Assembly (NCBI GenBank): GCA_043822885.1
Contig: JBDRBI010000034.1
Coordinates: forward strand, 1 to 42,138
DNA from: Candidatus Omnitrophota bacterium
GTDB lineage: Bacteria; Omnitrophota; Gorgyraeia; Tantalellales; Tantalellaceae
Direction: 5' to 3'
DNA: 42,138 nt
The notes beneath the pieces are model-generated. The model did no database searches. It was not told where the DNA came from and saw nothing but the letters and a program-made list of their open reading frames with translations. A program made the position numbers and the translations under genes. How positions within the stretch are numbered: the stretch's first letter is position 1; the number at the start of each line of letters is the position of its first letter. Below, piece by piece: positions 16,871-39,381 of this stretch.

Positions 16871-17057
16871 TAAAACTGTATGCCTGAATGAACAGTTGCG
16901 GTATTTTAGTATTTTTATAACTTTTTAAAGGAAAGAGTGTAAAATACTGTCTGAGTCCTGTACCGTTCCCGGTACAGGACGAGTTTATTTTACACCCCTT
17001 AAAAAGTTAGAAAAGTACGTTAAAAAATACCGCTGTGAATGAAGGTATACAGTTTTA
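16871..17057 (+). repeat. Long imperfect hairpin element, family C (copy 1)
   Basis: TAAAACTGTATGCCT/AGGTATACAGTTTTA termini, apex GTCCTGTACC/GGTACAGGAC; homologous to 36328-36515 and to the reverse complement of 33743-33939. Confidence 0.88.
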
Positions 17058-31776: not shown

Positions 31777-33099
31777 ATGTCGTACGAAGAAAACTGGCAC
31801 AAACTGCAGGACTGGACAGTTGAAAAGATCAAGAACTGTGACGGGTCCCTGCTTCCACTGGACAGAGAAAGTCTTCTCAAGCGCCAAGAACCTGAACTGG
31901 ATTATCAGTTTTTTTTGGAAAGCGCCTCAAGGACGATGATACGGTTCAAAAAGCCGGAGCACTTGATCCGCATGATAGTGCGCCTTATAGACGAACAGGT
32001 AAAGGTCACACATACGGCCATGCTCATGTATGATAAAGTCCGGAATTGCTATACGCTTACTGACAGTAAAGGCGCCGAAGGAGTAAAAATACCCATAGGT
32101 TTTATAAAGCTCACGTTTGAGAATCCTCTTATCAAGCTTTTTAATGAACGGCACAATTTTAAAGTGTCGGATTCCGGTTCTGTGGGATACAAAGAACTTT
32201 TGGATATATTGAATAGAAATGAAGACGTAAAAAAGGATCCGGTCCTTAGAGAGACGATAAGTCTCACGGTAAAACAGATGGAACTTTTGAAAGCAAATAC
32301 GTGCATACCGATATATTACAAAAAGGACCTGATGGGGATATTTATTCTTGGTAAGAAACTTTCAAATATAAAATTTTCAAAACAAGAAATAAGTTTTTTT
32401 AAAACGCTTGCCAATGACGTGGCGATGGCGCTATCCAACGCTCAGCTTATACAGGATCTTCAGGATAAAATATTTGAAGTACATCGCCTGTATGAGAGGG
32501 AACACAGTATATTTATCCATACGTCCATATCTTTGGCGGCCGCTATAGACGCAAGAGACCCTTACACGCACGGGCATACTGAACGGGTCACTCAATACGC
32601 GCTTTGCATTGCGGAAGAACTGGAAGATATGCCGGAGGCAAAAGCGTATAAGAATTTCAGAGAAACACTGCATGTAGCCGCTTTATTGCATGATGTCGGA
32701 AAGATCGGCGTTCCGGACAGTATCCTCAATAAAAAAGGATCTCTTACGGCGAAAGAATATGAAAAGGTGAAAGAGCATTCCACGACGGGAGCCGCTATTC
32801 TATACCCGATACGGGAACTAGGCGATATTGCCAGTGAAGTACGGGCTCATCACGAGAGATATGACGGAAACGGGTATCCCGATCAAATGAGAGGAGAAGA
32901 CATACCTTTCATCGCGCGAATTATAGCCGTTGCCGATACATTTGACGCTATTACCAGCGACAGGCCGTATCGTCAAAGAAAGATGGACGAGGTAGCCGTG
33001 CAGATAATAAAAGACAATTCGGGGACGCAGTTCGATCCTATAGTGGTAAGCGCGTTTCTCCTGAAACACAGAAAGGGCAGCCTTCGAACTAACAGCTGA
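31777..33099 (+). CDS. GAF-like + HD-GYP cyclic-dinucleotide phosphodiesterase
   Basis: DPYTHGHTERV, LHDVGKIG, HHERYDGNGYP, VADTFDAITSDRPYR. Confidence 0.92.
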   Translation: MSYEENWHKLQDWTVEKIKNCDGSLLPLDRESLLKRQEPELDYQFFLESASRTMIRFKKPEHLIRMIVRLIDEQVKVTHTAMLMYDKVRNCYTLTDSKGAEGVKIPIGFIKLTFENPLIKLFNERHNFKVSDSGSVGYKELLDILNRNEDVKKDPVLRETISLTVKQMELLKANTCIPIYYKKDLMGIFILGKKLSNIKFSKQEISFFKTLANDVAMALSNAQLIQDLQDKIFEVHRLYEREHSIFIHTSISLAAAIDARDPYTHGHTERVTQYALCIAEELEDMPEAKAYKNFRETLHVAALLHDVGKIGVPDSILNKKGSLTAKEYEKVKEHSTTGAAILYPIRELGDIASEVRAHHERYDGNGYPDQMRGEDIPFIARIIAVADTFDAITSDRPYRQRKMDEVAVQIIKDNSGTQFDPIVVSAFLLKHRKGSLRTNS

Positions 33100-33109
33100 A
33101 GAATATCTT

Positions 33110-33661
33110 TTATATGAACGACGGAGACATTACACAGATAGCTTCGGCTTGTCCTTTACTTTTATTTTTGAAAGAGTGAGGCAGGGAAGCGTCGAAATAA
33201 AGACTGTCACCTTTTTTGAGAAAGTATTTGGTCTTGCCGATAGAAGCTTCAAAAGATCCCTGCATTACATAAATAAATTTCTCCACACCCGTAGGGTTAT
33301 GTTCTTCCTGGGTTTCTCCTCCCGGAGAGATCTTCATTATCAGAGGAAGGATCTTTTTATCAAGAGTTTTTGTCACCAGAAGCTCATAAACGGTCTTGTT
33401 CCCGTGAATAAAATGTTCCGCTCGGTTCTTTTTTAAGACAGGTTCAACGGTCTTACTTTCGTCCTCTAATTCTCTGTATAATTCCGTTATAGAGACCCCG
33501 AGCACTTTACAGATATTAATGTGAGACTCGATAGTTCCGGGCATCTTATTGTTTTCCATGCGGCTCAATGTGGCCAAAGCAACACCACTTCTTTCGGAGA
33601 GTTCTTCAAGCGTGATATCTTTTTCTTTCCTGAGTTCACGTAACCTTTTACCTATCCTCAT
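33110..33661 (-). CDS. XRE-family HTH + cupin regulator
   Basis: IGKRLRELRKEK.ITLEELSERSGV, cupin EKFIYV..G...LKKGDSLYFDASLPH. Confidence 0.9.
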   Translation of the reverse strand: MRIGKRLRELRKEKDITLEELSERSGVALATLSRMENNKMPGTIESHINICKVLGVSITELYRELEDESKTVEPVLKKNRAEHFIHGNKTVYELLVTKTLDKKILPLIMKISPGGETQEEHNPTGVEKFIYVMQGSFEASIGKTKYFLKKGDSLYFDASLPHSFKNKSKGQAEAICVMSPSFI

Positions 33662-33742
33662 ATTGTCTCCTTATAGCGGAAATTTGTATTTGATTAACAA
33701 TGAACATTCTATTATACTTTTAACGAAAAATCAAATTAAAAT

Positions 33743-33939
33743 AAAGATGAGAGGCAAGGCCTTCCTTCACAAGTGTCATTTTTTAACGCTTATTTTCTAA
33801 CTTTTTAGGGGTGTTAAATGAACTCGCCCTGTACCAGGAGCGGTACAGGGCTCATACAGCATTTAACACTTATCCCTGAAAAGTTATAAAATAAGCTAAA
33901 ATGCCACAATTGTTCTTTCAGGCCTTGCCTCTCATCTTT
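33743..33939 (-). repeat. Long hairpin element, family C (copy 2, inverted)
   Basis: Perfect 20-bp terminal IR AAAGATGAGAGGCAAGGCCT/AGGCCTTGCCTCTCATCTTT; body is close to the reverse complement of 36328-36515. Confidence 0.9.
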
Positions 33940-33961
33940 TGCACGAAAAAAGATAAGTTTC

Positions 33962-34191
33962 CAAGGGCAGACGGTACCTGTTGGAGTGAATTGCGATTTT
34001 AGGCAAAGCAGCTTGGATATTGAGGGGACCCAAAAGGCCGGAGTAAGGCCTTTTGGACGCGAGTTCCGCGACCGAGGACGAAAGGTCCGAGGAAGTGTCG
34101 ATTTCTCCTGAAATCGACCAAGCGCCTCAATATCCGAGACCTTTGCCGTCAAAAAATCGCTCTGAACGGAAACGGGTGCCGTCTGTCCTTG
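33962..34191 (+). repeat. Long branched hairpin element, family D (copy 1)
   Basis: CAAGGGCAGACGGTACCTGTT/AACGGGTGCCGTCTGTCCTTG termini; GGATATTGAGG/CCTCAATATCC stem; apical hairpins. Confidence 0.88.
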
Positions 34192-34272
34192 CGGGTGGCT
34201 TTTGACTTTCAGACTTTTAGCTCCTTTGACGGATGATTGCTATCATCAGGCAGAACATTCAGGCAAAAAAGG

Positions 34273-34301
34273 TTGCACAACTACCTTTTCGTTGGTATAA
34301 T
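34273..34301 (+). promoter_or_regulatory. Sigma70 promoter for the orphan gene
   Basis: TTGCAC-17 bp-TATAAT with an extended TG. Confidence 0.65.
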
Positions 34302-34366
34302 AACGCGTAATATTGGAGCACTAAAATTATGATTATTTACATTGTGTGTATAACTGTGGAGCCGCT

Positions 34367-35923
34367 ATGATCGGTAAAGCTTTTATAACTATCAGTAAGA
34401 TTGTAGCCATCCTAATAGTAGCCTTACTACTATCCAATACCATTTCTCTAGCCGATATTTCAGAAATATATAATTACCAGAATACATTGTTACCCGCTTC
34501 AGGAATAAGTTCTATTTTAGATGATGGGATAGAAGATAGTTTTCGGGATATTGTTTATTTCAGGACTCTGGTAGAAACAATGGACAAGATATTATCCTGG
34601 CCGAATTTCCAAAGCTCTGAAATAAATGCCATAAAGCAAGTTGTGGTGAATCAAGTACCCGGGATAGATCTTGATGTTTTTCGGGTAGATATAATGAATA
34701 AAAGCGATAGGGGTGTTTTATTCTTACCGTATAATAAAAAAGATGCAGAAAAAGCTTATGTCTTAAGATTTTATCATAGGGGTGTTGATCCTGATGATAC
34801 TTCTAATTGGAGTACAAGAGGGATCAAGCACACGGTCATCGGTAGGATAAAAACCGGTAACGATAAAATAATATGTGAAGTGACCGACCCCAAGAGCAAA
34901 GACCGAATTGCTGCAAAAAGCATGAATGTAAAGGATCTGCTTGAGGTATCATCTCCCGTTAATTCCGAGGAGCTAATACCGACAATGGAGAGGTATCTTA
35001 AAGAAATAACAGGATACCTGGTTGAGTTAAAAAAGCTTGTTGAACTAGTGAAGAAAGATCCCATGAAATACGGAAATGAAATGTTAACAAATGCTCGATC
35101 AGTGGAGAAAATATGCTATGGTTGTGCGATCCCCGAGATCAGGTCCATTGTAGTGGATAATGTAGTTAATAAATCAGTAGGGATTTTCGGCTTATTAAAA
35201 AGAGATCTAAAAAAAACCGGAACTATATCCGAAGGCACATTAGCATTTTTCCCGGAAATAGAAGAGGCAATAGAAAAATGTAAGAAAGAGATAAAAGAGA
35301 TAATTTTTCAAAAAAGAGACGCGTTAAATGCCGGAGGATTTATTGAAATCATAGAAGAAAAAGCCCTGAACGCTTTCCTTGGGGGGCAAAAGATAGTTAT
35401 AGCGGTAGATGAAAGCTGGATCCCTCTCGTCCAGAAAGAGTGCATGCAGGAACTCTTGCCCGAACTGCAGCGCATATCGTCCAAAAGGGGATTTGAGAAT
35501 ATAATTTTTGTAAGGGAAAACGGAACGGAACTAGCCGGAGTATTGAATGAGGTTATAGAGAAAGAAAATGTAAATTTGTCAGATGTTATTATTCTCGGAG
35601 GTGTTGATATTTTAAGATCAAAAAAGTTTGAGGATTTTAAAATAGATGAGGATAAAGAAGAAGGCGCGTTCTTTGTAGAGATCGTAATGCAGGAACATTC
35701 TAAAGGGTACGGTTATATAAAACTCCTTGATCTGATAAGGTTCTCCATAAGGGTCGCATTTGATGAGGATCTATCTACGAAAAATCCTTATATAGACATT
35801 ATTCATGCCAATGCCGAACAAAGATTTATTTTGCTCGCTCCTATACCCGATATAAGCGTGGAAATTGATGAACTTGGAAAAATATACGATGCCCAAGCAA
35901 GAGCCATAGCCCGCATGGCGTAG
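34367..35923 (+). CDS. Hypothetical exported protein
   Basis: Signal-peptide-like MIGKAFITISKIVAILIVALLLSNTISLA; GGAG RBS; no recognised catalytic motif. Confidence 0.75.
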   Translation: MIGKAFITISKIVAILIVALLLSNTISLADISEIYNYQNTLLPASGISSILDDGIEDSFRDIVYFRTLVETMDKILSWPNFQSSEINAIKQVVVNQVPGIDLDVFRVDIMNKSDRGVLFLPYNKKDAEKAYVLRFYHRGVDPDDTSNWSTRGIKHTVIGRIKTGNDKIICEVTDPKSKDRIAAKSMNVKDLLEVSSPVNSEELIPTMERYLKEITGYLVELKKLVELVKKDPMKYGNEMLTNARSVEKICYGCAIPEIRSIVVDNVVNKSVGIFGLLKRDLKKTGTISEGTLAFFPEIEEAIEKCKKEIKEIIFQKRDALNAGGFIEIIEEKALNAFLGGQKIVIAVDESWIPLVQKECMQELLPELQRISSKRGFENIIFVRENGTELAGVLNEVIEKENVNLSDVIILGGVDILRSKKFEDFKIDEDKEEGAFFVEIVMQEHSKGYGYIKLLDLIRFSIRVAFDEDLSTKNPYIDIIHANAEQRFILLAPIPDISVEIDELGKIYDAQARAIARMA

Positions 35924-35985
35924 GTCAGGATATCCTTTAATCAGTTGATCCAAAAAAAAGACACCGAAACTTTCCTGATTATTTC

Positions 35986-36021
35986 AAACTCAATAAATCC
36001 CATAAACCCGACAAACTCCAT
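35986..36021. repeat. Degenerate 9-mer array
   Basis: aaactcaat aaatcccat aaacccgac aaactccat. Confidence 0.55.
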
Positions 36022-36048
36022 GATACAGATGAGAGGCAAGGCACAGGG

Positions 36049-36259
36049 TCAGCGTGGGCGGCACCTATTTCCGTTCAGAGCGATTTCTTGACGGCAAAGG
36101 TCTCGGATATTGAGGCGCTTGCGGAACTCGTCCGCCCTGAGGCGGACTCAAACAGTCCTCGCGCCCAAAAGACCTTATTCAGGCCTTTTGGGTTCCCTCA
36201 ATATCCAAGCTGCTTTGCCTAAAATCGCAATTCACTCCAACAGGTACCGTCCACGCTGA
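36049..36259 (-). repeat. Long branched hairpin element, family D (copy 2, inverted)
   Basis: Reverse complement of 33962-34191 in the arms; different outer stem (TCAGCGTGG/CCACGCTGA) and different apical module. Confidence 0.88.
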
Positions 36260-36327
36260 GCGCGTCTATTCCTGCTTGGTTTTATTTAGAAAGGATCACG
36301 ACTGTGCTTTTCGTTGCTATGCAAAGA

Positions 36328-36515
36328 GCGAAAGGCAAGGCCTGAATGAACAATTGCGGCATTTTAGCTTATTTTATAACTTTTTAGGGATAAGTGTTAA
36401 ATGCTGTCTGAGCCCTGTGCCTCTCCTGGTATAGGGCGAGTTCATTTAACACCCCTAAAAAGTTAGAAAATAAGCGTTAAAAAATGTCGCTGTGAAGGAA
36501 GGCATTGTCTTTTGC
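36328..36515 (+). repeat. Long hairpin element, family C (copy 3)
   Basis: GCCTGAATGAAC...CTGTCTGAG-stem-CGAGTT...TGTGAAGGAAGGC, as in the other copies. Confidence 0.9.
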
Positions 36516-36561
36516 CCTTAGACTTTAACTTTTGCTCCTTTGACGGCTGATTGCTATCATC

Positions 36562-36590
36562 TTGTCCTAACAAGAGTGATATGTTACAAT
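36562..36590 (+). promoter_or_regulatory. uvrA promoter
   Basis: TTGTCC-17 bp-TACAAT with an extended TG. Confidence 0.55.
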
Positions 36591-36597
36591 TACACTC

Positions 36598-39381
36598 GTG
36601 AGCATGGACCATATTATTATCAGGGGGGCGAGAGAGCATAATCTTAAGGGGATAAATGTTACTATTCCTAGGAATGCTTTATGTGTGGTAACGGGCCTTT
36701 CCGGATCGGGTAAATCATCTTTGGCCTTTGATACCATATACGCAGAGGGGCAACGACGTTATGTTGAGTCATTGTCAAGCTATGCGAGACAGTTCATAGA
36801 ACAGCTTCAGAAGCCTCGTGTAGACCAGATAGAAGGGTTGTCTCCTACCATAAGCATAGAACAGCGTACGGGGGGAAGAAATCCCCGCTCGACCGTAGGA
36901 ACGCAAACAGAAATTTATGACTATCTTAGGGTGTTGTTCGCGCGAGTCGGGCTGCAGCATTGTCCCAAATGCGGAAAGAGGATAACGGGACAAAGTTCAC
37001 AGCAAATAGTGGACAGCATCTTTTCTTTGCCCAAAGAAGAAACCATATTTATTTTGGCGCCTTTGATCAGCGGAAGAAAAGGCGAGCATCTCGACATAAT
37101 GAAAAACGCGCGCAGCGAAGGGTTTGTGCGGTTACGGCTGGACGGGAAGATAGAGGAGATAGCGGATAACATTCCCGCGCTCAATAAAAAAACAAAACAT
37201 ACCATAGAAGCGGTCGTCGACCGGATAAAGATAAAAGACGGCATAAAAAAAAGACTCGCGGATTCCGTTGAAACGGCTCTCAGGGCGGGCAACGGTATTA
37301 TTAAAGTCTCTTTCCAGGACGCGAAGAGAAAAGATGTTTTATTCAGTGAGCATAATGCGTGCATGAAATGCGGCATAAGTTTCGAAAAACTCGCTCCGAG
37401 GAATTTCTCTTTCAATAGTCCTTACGGAGCGTGTCCGGGATGTAACGGTCTTGGCAATAAAATGGAAATAGACATGGATCTGGTAGTGCCCGACAAAACA
37501 GAACCCCTTTTGAAAGCGGTTGTTCCATGGAAAAGAGGAGGGAAAGGGATAGTTCTTCATTTTCGAAGACGCCTCAGACGGCTTGCCAGATATCATGGTT
37601 TTGATCCGGATATCCCCTTTTGTAAACTGTCACTTGGACAAAAGAAGATGGTTCTTTTTGGGGATGGCGATTCAGCGTTCGAAGGAGTTATTCCCAATCT
37701 TGAAAGACGGTTCAGGGATACGGAGAGTGATTTCATGAAAGAGATGATAGGGTCTTTTATGTCCGTACAGCCCTGTCCCGAATGTAACGGAGAACGATTG
37801 AAAGAAGAATCCAGGAATGTTTTTATCGGTAAAAAAAATATATCAGAGGCATGTAAATTATCTATAATAGAGGCCAAAAAATACTTTTCTTCCGTCAAAT
37901 TTGACAGTATGAGAAAAAAGATAGCGGAAGATGCCCTGAAGGAGATAAAAGCGAGAATTGACTTTATGATAAATGTGGGTTTAGGCTATCTTACTTTGGA
38001 TCGAAAAAGTAATACTCTTTCGGGAGGTGAGGATCAAAGGATAAGGCTGGCCACACAGATCGGATCCGCGCTTTGCGGGGTCCTTTACGTTCTGGACGAA
38101 CCGAGTATAGGATTACATCAGAAAGATAACAAAAAACTGCTCGATACATTGAATGTCCTTAAAGATCTTGGAAACACTCTTATAGTGGTCGAGCATGACG
38201 AGGCGACTATAAGAATGGCCGATCACATCATAGATCTGGGTCCCGGAGCCGGTGAATATGGAGGCAAAGTGATCGCGGAAGGAGATCTGAAAACGATCTT
38301 AGATAGCAAGGAATCTCTTACCGGGCGATATCTGAGAGGGGATCTTAAAATTGAAACACCTAAAACGAGGCGGAAATATGATCATGATAAATGTATTGAG
38401 ATCATCGGGGCCGAAGAGCACAATTTAAAAAAAATAGACGTAAAAATACCTCTTGGACTGTTTAACTGTGTTACGGGAGTATCAGGTTCGGGGAAAAGCA
38501 CGTTGGTTGATGAGATCCTGTATCGAGGGGTCGCCGGAAAACTTTATGGCGCGAAGGACCGTCCGGGTAAACATAAAAAGATAAAAGGGGTGGAGCATAT
38601 AGATAAGATCATTGTTATCGATCAGGATCCTATCGGGAGGACACCAAGATCCAATCCCGCTACGTACACGGGAGCTTTTGATGTTATTCGCAGGCTTTTT
38701 AGCGCTTTGCCGGAAGCGCGTATGCGGGGATATCAGCCCGGCAGATTTAGTTTTAATGTAAAGGGCGGGAGATGCGAATCCTGCCAGGGAGGCGGAGTGA
38801 AACGGATAGAGATGCATTTCCTGCCGGATGTATATGTTACCTGCCGGACATGTAACGGCAGAAGATTTAATGAACAAACGCTCGAAGTAAAATATAAAGG
38901 TTACAGCATACATGAAGTTCTTGAGATGAGCGTGGGAGACGCGCTTAAAATATTCGAACATATACCGGCTGTAAACGGCAAACTGCAAACTCTTTATGAT
39001 GTTGGGTTAGGTTATATTCGGCTGGGGCAGGCGGCTACAACATTATCGGGAGGAGAGGCGCAAAGGGTGAAGATCGCGACCGAACTGTCAAAGAAGGCTA
39101 CAGGCAGGACTCTTTATATTTTAGATGAGCCAACGACCGGTCTTCACTTTGCGGATATAAGTAAATTACTGGAGGTCTTACATAGGTTAGTTTCATCAGG
39201 AAATACCGTTTTGGTCATAGAACATAATTTGGACGTTATTAAGTCCGCCGATCACATAACGGATCTTGGACCCGAAGGAGGTGAAGGAGGAGGAGAGCTT
39301 GTTGCGTGTGGGACGCCCGAACAGGTAGCCGAAAATAAGATGTCCTATACAGGAGCATATCTCAAGACCAAAGATATATGA
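36598..39381 (+). CDS. uvrA: Excinuclease ABC subunit A
   Basis: GAREHNLK, GLSGSGKSSLAFDT, two ABC domains (LSGGE), zinc fingers. Confidence 0.98.
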   Translation: MSMDHIIIRGAREHNLKGINVTIPRNALCVVTGLSGSGKSSLAFDTIYAEGQRRYVESLSSYARQFIEQLQKPRVDQIEGLSPTISIEQRTGGRNPRSTVGTQTEIYDYLRVLFARVGLQHCPKCGKRITGQSSQQIVDSIFSLPKEETIFILAPLISGRKGEHLDIMKNARSEGFVRLRLDGKIEEIADNIPALNKKTKHTIEAVVDRIKIKDGIKKRLADSVETALRAGNGIIKVSFQDAKRKDVLFSEHNACMKCGISFEKLAPRNFSFNSPYGACPGCNGLGNKMEIDMDLVVPDKTEPLLKAVVPWKRGGKGIVLHFRRRLRRLARYHGFDPDIPFCKLSLGQKKMVLFGDGDSAFEGVIPNLERRFRDTESDFMKEMIGSFMSVQPCPECNGERLKEESRNVFIGKKNISEACKLSIIEAKKYFSSVKFDSMRKKIAEDALKEIKARIDFMINVGLGYLTLDRKSNTLSGGEDQRIRLATQIGSALCGVLYVLDEPSIGLHQKDNKKLLDTLNVLKDLGNTLIVVEHDEATIRMADHIIDLGPGAGEYGGKVIAEGDLKTILDSKESLTGRYLRGDLKIETPKTRRKYDHDKCIEIIGAEEHNLKKIDVKIPLGLFNCVTGVSGSGKSTLVDEILYRGVAGKLYGAKDRPGKHKKIKGVEHIDKIIVIDQDPIGRTPRSNPATYTGAFDVIRRLFSALPEARMRGYQPGRFSFNVKGGRCESCQGGGVKRIEMHFLPDVYVTCRTCNGRRFNEQTLEVKYKGYSIHEVLEMSVGDALKIFEHIPAVNGKLQTLYDVGLGYIRLGQAATTLSGGEAQRVKIATELSKKATGRTLYILDEPTTGLHFADISKLLEVLHRLVSSGNTVLVIEHNLDVIKSADHITDLGPEGGEGGGELVACGTPEQVAENKMSYTGAYLKTKDI

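Follow-up and report, generated by a model that had tools for sequence, protein, structure and literature searches.

Positions 33740–36561 of the window, the whole 42,138-nucleotide (nt) stretch of contig JBDRBI010000034.1 analyzed here (Candidatus Omnitrophota bacterium, assembly GCA_043822885.1), hold a single substantial open reading frame (ORF), named ORPH in this work, which is bracketed by two mirror-image blocks of long hairpin-forming repeats. The interval is a genome-specific insertion relative to an ancestral arrangement in which the gene for an XRE-cupin regulator stands next to uvrA, and the borders of the insertion match the outer ends of the two blocks. ORPH itself is a lineage-specific, compositionally atypical inserted gene. 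With slightly better than even confidence, the arrangement is explained by colonization of the region by repeats and by local duplication and inversion of one unit, consisting of a doublet of hairpins and a direct repeat b, beside the inserted gene; the hairpins have plausibly been spread by Y1/HUH enzymes. No support was found for reading the inverted pair of doublets as evidence of gene capture or gene movement. A non-autonomous cassette had been proposed in the original prediction, made from the DNA sequence alone, and this proposal is not favored: ORPH and b are each confined to a single locus, no target duplication was detected, and the repeats in the flanks are dispersed.

The genome studied (G000) is a metagenome-type assembly of 1,552,414 bases in 142 contigs and is 92% complete. 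The genomes compared with it are designated by G and a number (for example G001), loci are designated by L and a number, and contigs of G000 are designated by C and a number (for example C11, C23, and C131). G001 and G002 belong to the same genus as G000, whereas G033, G023, and G024 represent other genera of the same family. Hairpin C and hairpin D are the two repeat families, C' and D' are their inverted copies, a is a terminal repeat of 16–20 nt, and b is a direct repeat of 44–47 nt.

Locus Structure and Flanking Arms

Three inverted pairs were found by a repeat search of positions 33000–37200. The first pairs 33772–33943 with 36320–36491 (172 nt, 92% identity), the second pairs 33970–34063 with 36158–36251 (94 nt, 95% identity), and the third pairs 34119–34181 with 36059–36121 (63 nt, 95% identity). 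When the left flank was compared with the right flank using sensitive BLAST, a single minus-strand alignment with 377/493 identities and an E value of 7e-97 was obtained. The predicted order of C'-D, gene, and D'-C within inverted arms of about 450 nt is therefore confirmed, with C' and D forming the left arm, D' and C forming the right arm, and b directly following each arm. The coordinates of all features are collected in Table 1. Hairpin C folds with −89.1 kcal/mol (z −11.2 relative to shuffled sequences) and hairpin D with −98.3 kcal/mol (z −6.9). The terminal stem of the right C copy has drifted, and pairing on the plus strand is kept through five G-U pairs.

Table 1. Features of the ORPH locus and its two neighboring genes (positions in the window)
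Feature	Positions	Strand	Evidence	Remarks
XRE-family helix-turn-helix (HTH) and cupin regulator gene	33110..33661	-	Pfam HTH_3, Cupin_2; synteny	Conserved left neighbor; in most relatives divergent from and adjacent to uvrA
Repeat a, left copy	33741..33760	+	Repeat search, BLAST	Outer terminal stem of C'; left terminal inverted repeat of the left doublet
Hairpin C', C-a subfamily	33743..33939	-	nhmmer, 218 bits on the minus strand; 36-copy alignment	Same direction as the XRE-cupin gene
Hairpin D, left copy	33962..34191	+		Apex (~34059-34120) replaced by the small conserved motif E
Small terminator-like hairpin	34178..34199	+	Reading of the alignment	Overlaps the decayed inverted a; left doublet, inner end
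Direct repeat b, copy 1	34201..34247	+		Holds a palindrome (6 bp, 4-nt loop)
Putative ORPH promoter, sigma-70-like	34274..34301	+	Consensus match only	10/12 matches and a TG extension
ORPH, 518 aa	34367..35923	+
Repeat a, inner (D') end of the right doublet	36023..36042	+		Mirror counterpart of the decayed copy at ~34184-34193
Hairpin D', right copy	36049..36259	-		Apex agrees with that of the third D copy (C131)
Hairpin C, right copy	36328..36515	+		Co-directional with ORPH and uvrA
Direct repeat b, copy 2	36518..36561	+		End is the exact start of similarity to two same-genus genomes
uvrA promoter-like site	36562..36590	+		Conserved in relatives
uvrA	36598..39381	+	Pfam UvrA domains	Conserved right neighbor; 73-81% identity in relatives

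Both flanks had been predicted to begin with the same direct 16-mer and to end with the same direct 28-mer. The 16-mer, which belongs to a, is present at 33745 (+) and 36027 (+), but it is not solely a direct repeat, as inverted copies stand at the block ends and a third exact occurrence lies at 33922 (−). These are its only three occurrences in G000. In each block a is found at the outer end of C and again, inverted, beyond the end of D; by reading of the alignment, this second copy is intact in the right block and decayed in the left. The two flanks begin with the same 16-mer because a caps the block ends in opposite orientation, so that a block in either orientation begins alike and no extra event is needed. 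Only b is a true direct repeat outside the blocks. Its 28-mer at 34220 and 36534 is a direct repeat as predicted but is not identical between the two places; with indels the similarity extends over the full copies of Table 1. The 13-mer core of b occurs at these two places alone in G000. The repeat lies inside the bracket on the left and outside the bracket on the right, and it abuts the right side of both blocks whatever their orientation.

The identity between the duplicated parts is 19/20 for a, 27/28 for b, about 89–93% for C, and 95% for the arms of D. The D arms of the two blocks are thus closer to one another than to the third D copy of the genome, with which they share 82–93%. The spacers between D and C within the two blocks align by BLAST as deletion variants of one another. 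The claim of a hairpin D on both sides holds for these arms but not for the central ~60 nt, which differs between the two blocks because the left copy bears another small repeat, motif E, at its apex. The end of the left D copy with the first b aligns directly with the end of the right C copy with the second b because C and D share their arm ends. An original suggestion that one unit was duplicated with its interior inverted agrees with these comparisons, the flanks being paralogous copies with opposite interiors.

Two further observations were made on the blocks. The spacer of the right block (36260–36327) weakly resembles the −10 region of ORPH (34268–34300) in 25/32 columns with an E value of 0.07, which is not significant alone; the resemblance hints at repeated local duplication. 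The terminal stem of D is a few bases longer in the right copy (36049–36075/36235–36259) than in the left copy (33962–33985/34170–34191), on both arms. Both arms have thus changed together between the copies with pairing kept, a concerted stem change.

The Interval in Related Genomes

Orthologues of the XRE-cupin regulator were found in 27 of the 37 genomes searched, and the region was fetched from 13 relatives. As the original prediction had proposed, the interval between this gene and uvrA is informative in relatives. In 10 of the 13 the two genes are adjacent and divergent, and the spacers are about 150–530 nt long (about 150–190 nt in six relatives and 270–530 nt in four). Among the longer spacers, those of L041, L048, and L049 contain hairpin-type repeats or a local duplication, and that of L044 contains a possible small ORF, as read by eye. 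No uvrA was present within the 12 kb fetched from G009 and G004. The two same-genus genomes carry other genes at this place. In G002 the XRE-cupin gene is separated from uvrA by 8.8 kb with ORFs of 1654 and 993 aa, and in G001 the 8.4 kb upstream of uvrA is occupied by unrelated small genes and no XRE-cupin gene.

The limits of the insertion are visible on both sides. On the right, DNA similarity resumes at 36560 with G002 and at 36580 with G001, which corresponds to the end of the second b. On the left, relatives share a short conserved motif upstream of the XRE-cupin gene, and in G000 this motif stops just short of 33741. In the relatives that lack the interval, the flanking genes are only about 75–80% identical to those of G000. 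The region upstream of uvrA is a variable spot whose gene content differs among the three genomes of the genus, and in two of these three a gene found there ends in the same uncharacterized C-terminal domain.

Two candidates for conserved elements were rejected. A role of b as an operator was dropped, as none of the 10 relatives in which the two genes are adjacent, nor G001 or G002, conserves b upstream of uvrA. A heptamer-like stretch after the ORPH stop codon (35986–36018), which is unique in G000, has a match in G002 (33 nt, 88%) whose location differs, being just downstream of the XRE-cupin gene there, and it was not accepted as orthology. The spacer of L041 (G003:C1) contains runs of heptamer-like repeats and a tandem duplication of ~250 nt, which takes in the initial ~33 codons of the XRE-cupin gene. 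In another genus, too, the XRE-cupin/uvrA region is therefore prone to rearrangement.

The ORPH Gene and Its Protein

The enclosed gene had been described as AT-rich and as having its own promoter. A promoter-like site precedes the gene (Table 1), and the G+C fraction of ORPH is 0.375 against a mean of 0.432 (standard deviation 0.025), at the 1.4th percentile of the 566 ORFs of at least 300 aa. No recombinase is encoded within the interval, as had also been noted. A single copy of ORPH is present in G000.

The ORPH protein consists of an N-terminal region without relatives and a conserved alpha/beta domain of ~190 aa at the C-terminus (residues ~320–515, encoded by 35324–35920). By eye, the N-terminus looks like a hydrophobic signal peptide or membrane anchor. 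No Pfam match was obtained for ORPH, and in a search of 5.8 billion sequences it was recovered by itself alone among proteins of similar length; a metagenome contig collection contained no close relative. A HMMER search of 1.84 billion representatives gave 213 proteins with E values of at most 1e-3. Among the matches listed, residues ~270–517 of ORPH alone are covered, and the matching segment lies at or near the C-terminus of proteins of 117–6375 aa. Within the 61 genomes (G000 included), a match is present in 33, among them 31 of the 36 genomes of the same family, and none covers the first 165 residues. The 1654-aa ORF of G002, which occupies the equivalent place, matches the C-terminal part of ORPH with 29% identity. 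The C-terminal domain is apparently restricted to this bacterial family and otherwise ends large, often giant, proteins.

An AlphaFold model of the C-terminal domain, calculated from a 42-sequence alignment, has an alpha/beta fold with a predicted local distance difference test (pLDDT) score of 92.7 and a predicted template modeling (pTM) score of 0.89. The single-sequence model of the whole protein is poor (pLDDT 45). Structure searches with the domain yielded only generic alpha/beta similarities; Foldseek gave no match at E values of up to 1e-3, and the best match of VIA-align had a Z score of 6.6. Searches of Pfam, of PDB sequence profiles, and of a protein atlas with the domain gave nothing usable. 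The domain is not mentioned in the passages found of a preprint on giant Omnitrophota genes (10.1101/2023.11.21.568195).

Hairpin Families C and D

A profile of hairpin C was built from four long copies and gave 77 nhmmer hits in G000. Merged, these hits make up 49 loci, which are distributed over 34 of the 142 contigs and in many cases lie at contig ends. An alignment of 36 copies resolves three subfamilies that have an asymmetric core in common and differ in their terminal stems and apex. In the consensus fold of this alignment, 98.2% of the paired cells are canonical and double-sided changes occur in 9 of 40 pairs. Hairpin D is present in three full copies (two at this locus and one at C131:443–664) and in a half copy on C83. 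The two families share a basal stem module, and the outer parts of both arms are alike across the families; by these sequence comparisons, D is regarded as a relative of C.

The original prediction had been set against a picture in which C and D are abundant, independently scattered repeats and the gene is syntenic in relatives that lack the flanks. Of this picture, C is indeed dispersed over the genome, D is rare in G000, and D-C doublets are recurrent. Full-length ORPH is absent from the relatives.

Repeats of these kinds are also found in other genomes. The C-like matches number 18 in G033, 13 in G023, and 8 in G024, and G001 and G002 contain one weak match each. D is frequent in another genus, and D-like arm matches number 17 in G036 and 7 in G033. 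A further C site in the window lies at 16882–17046, where the intergenic spacer is ~700 nt long compared with ~230 nt in the orthologous spacer of G001. Together, the repeats constitute a modular superfamily of long intergenic hairpins in G000 and related genera, with a common basal stem and with exchangeable cores, apices, and terminal stems. Rfam 15 gave no matches in the window at gathering thresholds; with relaxed thresholds, three weak matches with E values of 0.46–0.99, which is the level of chance, were obtained in 33600–36650. No paper on intergenic repeats in Omnitrophota was found in full-text literature searches. Bacterial intergenic repeats in general are treated in one review (PMC3184786).

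Motif E, at the apex of the left D copy (34059–34120), consists of a core of ~33 nt followed by a variable small hairpin, and it is conserved at about 90–97% identity. It is also found in G000 at C4:~4641, C51:~3669 (counted on the minus strand), C115:~3310, and C63:9271–9332, and loci L054–L065 contain it as well. Several relatives, other families of the class included, have about 10 or more copies per genome, with 15 matches in G005, 13 in G027, and 12 each in G002, G009, and G040, sometimes in tandem with a period of 49 nt. In four groundwater/biofilm runs the depth of motif E is ~10 times that of its flanks. No Rfam match to it was obtained. Two copies of C, at C104:1992–2239 and C131:40842–41106, are split by ~100 nt inserted at the apex. 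These splits and the position of E in the left D copy suggest that apices are preferred sites of nested insertion or module exchange.

Head-to-Head Doublets at Other Sites

All three full D copies lie 22–68 nt from a copy of C-a, always head to head. Within each block, C and D are opposite in direction as judged by the shared basal module. The third C'-D doublet (C131:200–664) has a C-D spacer that is unrelated to those of the locus. It is located in C131:1–700, between a minus-strand gene and groES and just upstream of both the groES promoter and a CIRCE-like inverted repeat. A further head-to-head pair, formed by two C copies, occupies a divergent intergenic region at C23:24533/24758.

In G033, six head-to-head doublets were found, distributed over four loci. 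Five of them were aligned; all five are heterotypic, with one hairpin of each having a D-like basal stem, and three have one orientation and two the other. As a side observation, the C-like elements of this genome (L217–L220) occur mainly as such doublets. A Na/Pi cotransporter-PhoU gene of G033, with aspartate-dehydrogenase-like and IMPDH-like genes as its neighbors, is bracketed by two doublets that are 86–95% alike, and a three-ORF stretch with an aroB-like (3-dehydroquinate synthase) gene lies between two other doublets. The doublets of G033 simply occupy successive intergenic regions. Housekeeping genes are bracketed in that genome, and bracketing alone is therefore no mark of a cassette.

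Inverted copies of a 16–19-nt stem form the ends of every hairpin and likewise of every doublet, although this property discriminates weakly, the element being wholly palindromic. No consistent flanking duplication was seen in the 36-copy C alignment (with 40-nt flanks) or at the five G033 doublets, the ends being blurred by variable terminal stems. The orthologous site in G001 and G002 is too diverged for exact element ends to be assigned.

Orientation of the Hairpins

In G000, 25 of the 26 elements located between co-oriented ORFs (27 of 28 when profile loci are counted) point in the direction of those ORFs. The binomial p value of 8e-7 overstates this polarity, as the copies share ancestry and the ORFs come from simple calling. 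Folded as RNA, the co-oriented strand is the more stable one in 34 of the 36 C copies, with a mean advantage of 7.2 kcal/mol. The strands differ most in the right C copy at this locus, −89.1 versus −64.7 kcal/mol, where the more stable strand has its five G-U pairs and the other none. Each C copy of the locus points in the direction of the adjacent gene, which is the XRE-cupin gene on the left and uvrA on the right; the mirror image therefore fits the divergent genes. The polarity is strong in G000 but is genome-specific and not general. Neither a function of C in sense-strand RNA nor replication is put forward as its cause, as copies in G024 are reversed.

Assembly, Movement, and Candidate Enzymes

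Exact contig pieces from four public sequencing runs, one of which is possibly the source sample, bridge the junctions XRE-upstream/C', C'/D, D/b1, b1/ORPH, and ORPH/a/D'. The mapping of reads for inversion or circular junctions, which had been proposed, was approached with the same kind of material: no alternative junctions were found in the low-depth contig pieces of the four runs, whose coverage is too thin for rare forms. No RNA dataset that covers the locus was listed.

The outer flanks (33730–33742 and 36516–36530) have no direct repeat in common, and thus there is no target duplication of the whole unit. No second copy of ORPH or of the composite was found in G000, in the 61 genomes, in the 1.84-billion-protein library, or in the metagenome contigs, and a pattern scan of the metagenome contig collection for b gave no hits. 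A scan of a genome contig collection for the 16-mer of a gave at least 119 hits in unrelated phyla and was discarded, as hundreds are expected by chance at that size; two hits labeled Omnitrophota have nothing else in common with the locus.

The original prediction had invoked a trans-acting enzyme that recognizes hairpins, either an HUH enzyme or a tyrosine recombinase. Enzymes of the first class are encoded in G000, where six Y1_Tnp (Y1/HUH) genes were identified (C23:11560–12156, C32:6941–7639, C91:6022–6666, C27:5328–5996, C138:11424–12803, and one on the minus strand of C61). Four of the proteins were scanned against NCBIfam and match the REP-associated tyrosine transposase (RAYT) family, with scores of 88.2 (the cutoff is 80), 79.4, and two lower values; REP denotes repetitive extragenic palindromic sequences. 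The genes on C23, C32, C91, and C27, however, are each flanked by their own, different short REP-like hairpins, as read from the flanking sequences; three of these four genes are among the four scanned. Two of the flanking hairpin types are multicopy, with 21 and 15 exact copies. Long C-terminal extensions that include a hydrophobic stretch, as judged by eye, are found in two of the Y1 proteins.

The tyrosine recombinase part of the claim was not borne out. Only two proteins with a Phage_integrase domain are encoded, and these reach the equivalog cutoffs of XerD and XerC and fall far below the integron-integrase cutoffs. No IS110-type enzyme was found in the 92% complete assembly. An autonomous parent with the same ends was not found among the Y1_Tnp, Phage_integrase, and IS110 families; DDE families were not searched. 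An enzyme class that handles hairpins is thus encoded in G000, and its link to C and D is an inference only.

Origin of the Arrangement

In the favored explanation, ORPH would have entered a short, ancestrally divergent promoter region between the XRE-cupin gene and uvrA. The unit of doublet and b would then have been duplicated, with one copy on either side of ORPH, and one doublet would subsequently have been inverted, either by recombination between its inverted ends or by excision and reinsertion. Alternatively, the duplication may reflect joint arrival of the gene and the unit through one crossover, located in b or in the doublet; the same order would result if a circle with b, the gene, and a doublet crossed over once with the chromosome in b. 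Spread of the hairpins was probably in trans, and Y1/HUH (RAYT-like) enzymes acting on folded single strands are plausible agents.

Several observations weigh against this explanation. The C copies of the two blocks (identity about 0.89) are no closer to one another than to the copies on C11 and C135 (0.85–0.90), and therefore the C data alone fit independent insertions equally well. The stretch between hairpin and b aligns poorly in either orientation, where inversion of a doublet predicts a direct match as good as that of b. The repeat b has no other copy in G000 or in the metagenome contigs to show its origin. Neither an empty site nor a flipped variant was seen in the contig pieces, which are too thin to show rare variants. 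With regard to the enzymes, no C or D flanks a Y1 gene in G000. The orientation rule also fails in G024, where seven C-like copies were sampled (L224, L228, and L229 among the loci) and all three of those between co-oriented ORFs have the opposite orientation.

Two independent insertions are considered an unlikely origin. Here a mobile doublet bounded by inverted repeats would have landed twice, in opposite orientations, beside each of the divergent promoters, and the gene would have arrived separately. Such events are consistent with the third doublet on C131 and its unrelated spacer, with the occurrence of G033 doublets in both orientations, with the lack of any special similarity between the two C copies relative to other C-a copies, and with the direction of each C toward that of its adjacent gene, as in 25 of the 26 G000 elements between co-oriented genes. 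The repeat b is not accommodated, however: it is unique to the locus and stands on the right of both blocks, and hence was duplicated in any case. The C-D spacers of the two blocks also look related by deletions, the D arms are closer to one another (95%) than to the third copy (82–93%), and target duplications were not observed. In a possible variant, the independent insertions would have taken place beside a b that was already duplicated.

The gene-carrying composite is a doubtful alternative. It treats the inverted doublets as the ends of a transposon of the type formed by pairs of MITEs (miniature transposable elements with inverted repeats), which brought ORPH to the site and could be moved again in trans. 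Long inverted arms around a single AT-rich gene that has a promoter-like site and no full-length relative, insert boundaries that coincide with the outer ends of the blocks, and Y1/HUH enzymes encoded in the same genome all agree with it. These features are outweighed by the failure to find a second gene or composite copy in the collections searched, by the lack of a target duplication at the outer ends, by the placement of b, internal on the left but external on the right, which is not expected of a simple composite, and by the similar doublets around housekeeping genes in G033. Where a small genome is rich in repeats, mirrored copies on both sides of an orphan gene are no evidence of a cassette.

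An invertible switch is very improbable. The doublet would flip between its terminal inverted repeats as a phase-variation device acting on the XRE-cupin, ORPH, or uvrA promoters, with the two copies fixed in opposite states. The opposite orientation of the a copies at the block ends, the difference in interior orientation between the two units, and the terminator-like hairpin that stands at one end of the left block, shortly before the promoter-like site of ORPH, are compatible with this model, but no dedicated invertase was found among the families searched in the 92% complete assembly (the two tyrosine recombinases match the XerC and XerD models, and no IS110 enzyme was found; serine invertases were not searched). 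A contig mis-joined through repeats is scarcely credible even in a fragmented assembly of 142 contigs with C copies often at contig ends, since exact contig pieces from public runs bridge five junctions from XRE-upstream/C' to ORPH/a/D' and the arms differ by 5–8%, enough for an assembler to separate them.

A more far-reaching interpretation is a long shot. The heterotypic doublet might be the working unit of an undescribed class of elements that are mobilized as single strands, with arms that regenerate one another through a fold-back intermediate; within this interpretation, the concerted stem changes would arise because of such regeneration. The inverted pair would then be a cargo-carrying composite by which fast-evolving genes for secreted or surface proteins are moved into hot spots close to promoters, the region upstream of uvrA being one example. 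If the doublets were shown to be mobile, they would offer a tractable case for the spread of hairpin DNA and the reshaping of promoters in uncultivated ultra-small bacteria.

Comparison with Known Systems

The locus differs from an integron cassette in that its hairpin blocks are mutually inverted rather than in the same orientation and in that no integron integrase was found, the only two tyrosine recombinases of the genome matching XerD and XerC. Correia elements and ERIC/IRU are intergenic imperfect palindromes of 100–200 nt in proteobacteria. The hairpins described here resemble them in size class, in being imperfect palindromes, in their location between closely spaced genes, and in their tens of copies per genome. 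They differ in their unrelated sequence, their occurrence in another phylum, their modular build, and their fixed head-to-head doublet, and TA target duplications like those of Correia elements were not observed.

The REP module is about 20–40 nt long and has a conserved 5' tetranucleotide. The modules of the present repeats are 130–230 nt long, and each is itself a hairpin.

Composites formed by pairs of MITEs include TIME-COMPs and integron mobilization units (PMC13367494). The ORPH locus is similar to a TIME-COMP in having a gene between two small non-autonomous inverted-repeat elements with no transposase inside. It is distinguished from a TIME-COMP by the absence of a target duplication and of a second copy, by its long hairpin doublets, and by the asymmetric direct repeat b.

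The REPIN is an inverted REP doublet that is mobilized by a RAYT Y1 transposase (PMC3337134, PMC3116915). The doublets of G000 depart from this system in being heterotypic, with one C-type and one D-type hairpin, and in that neither C nor D flanks any of the Y1 genes, the four examined having their own short hairpins on either side. As in the REPIN, the gene-less intergenic unit is a doublet of two related, inverted palindromic modules that forms hairpins and is present in dozens of copies, and as in REPIN/RAYT systems, RAYT-like Y1 genes are encoded in the same genome.

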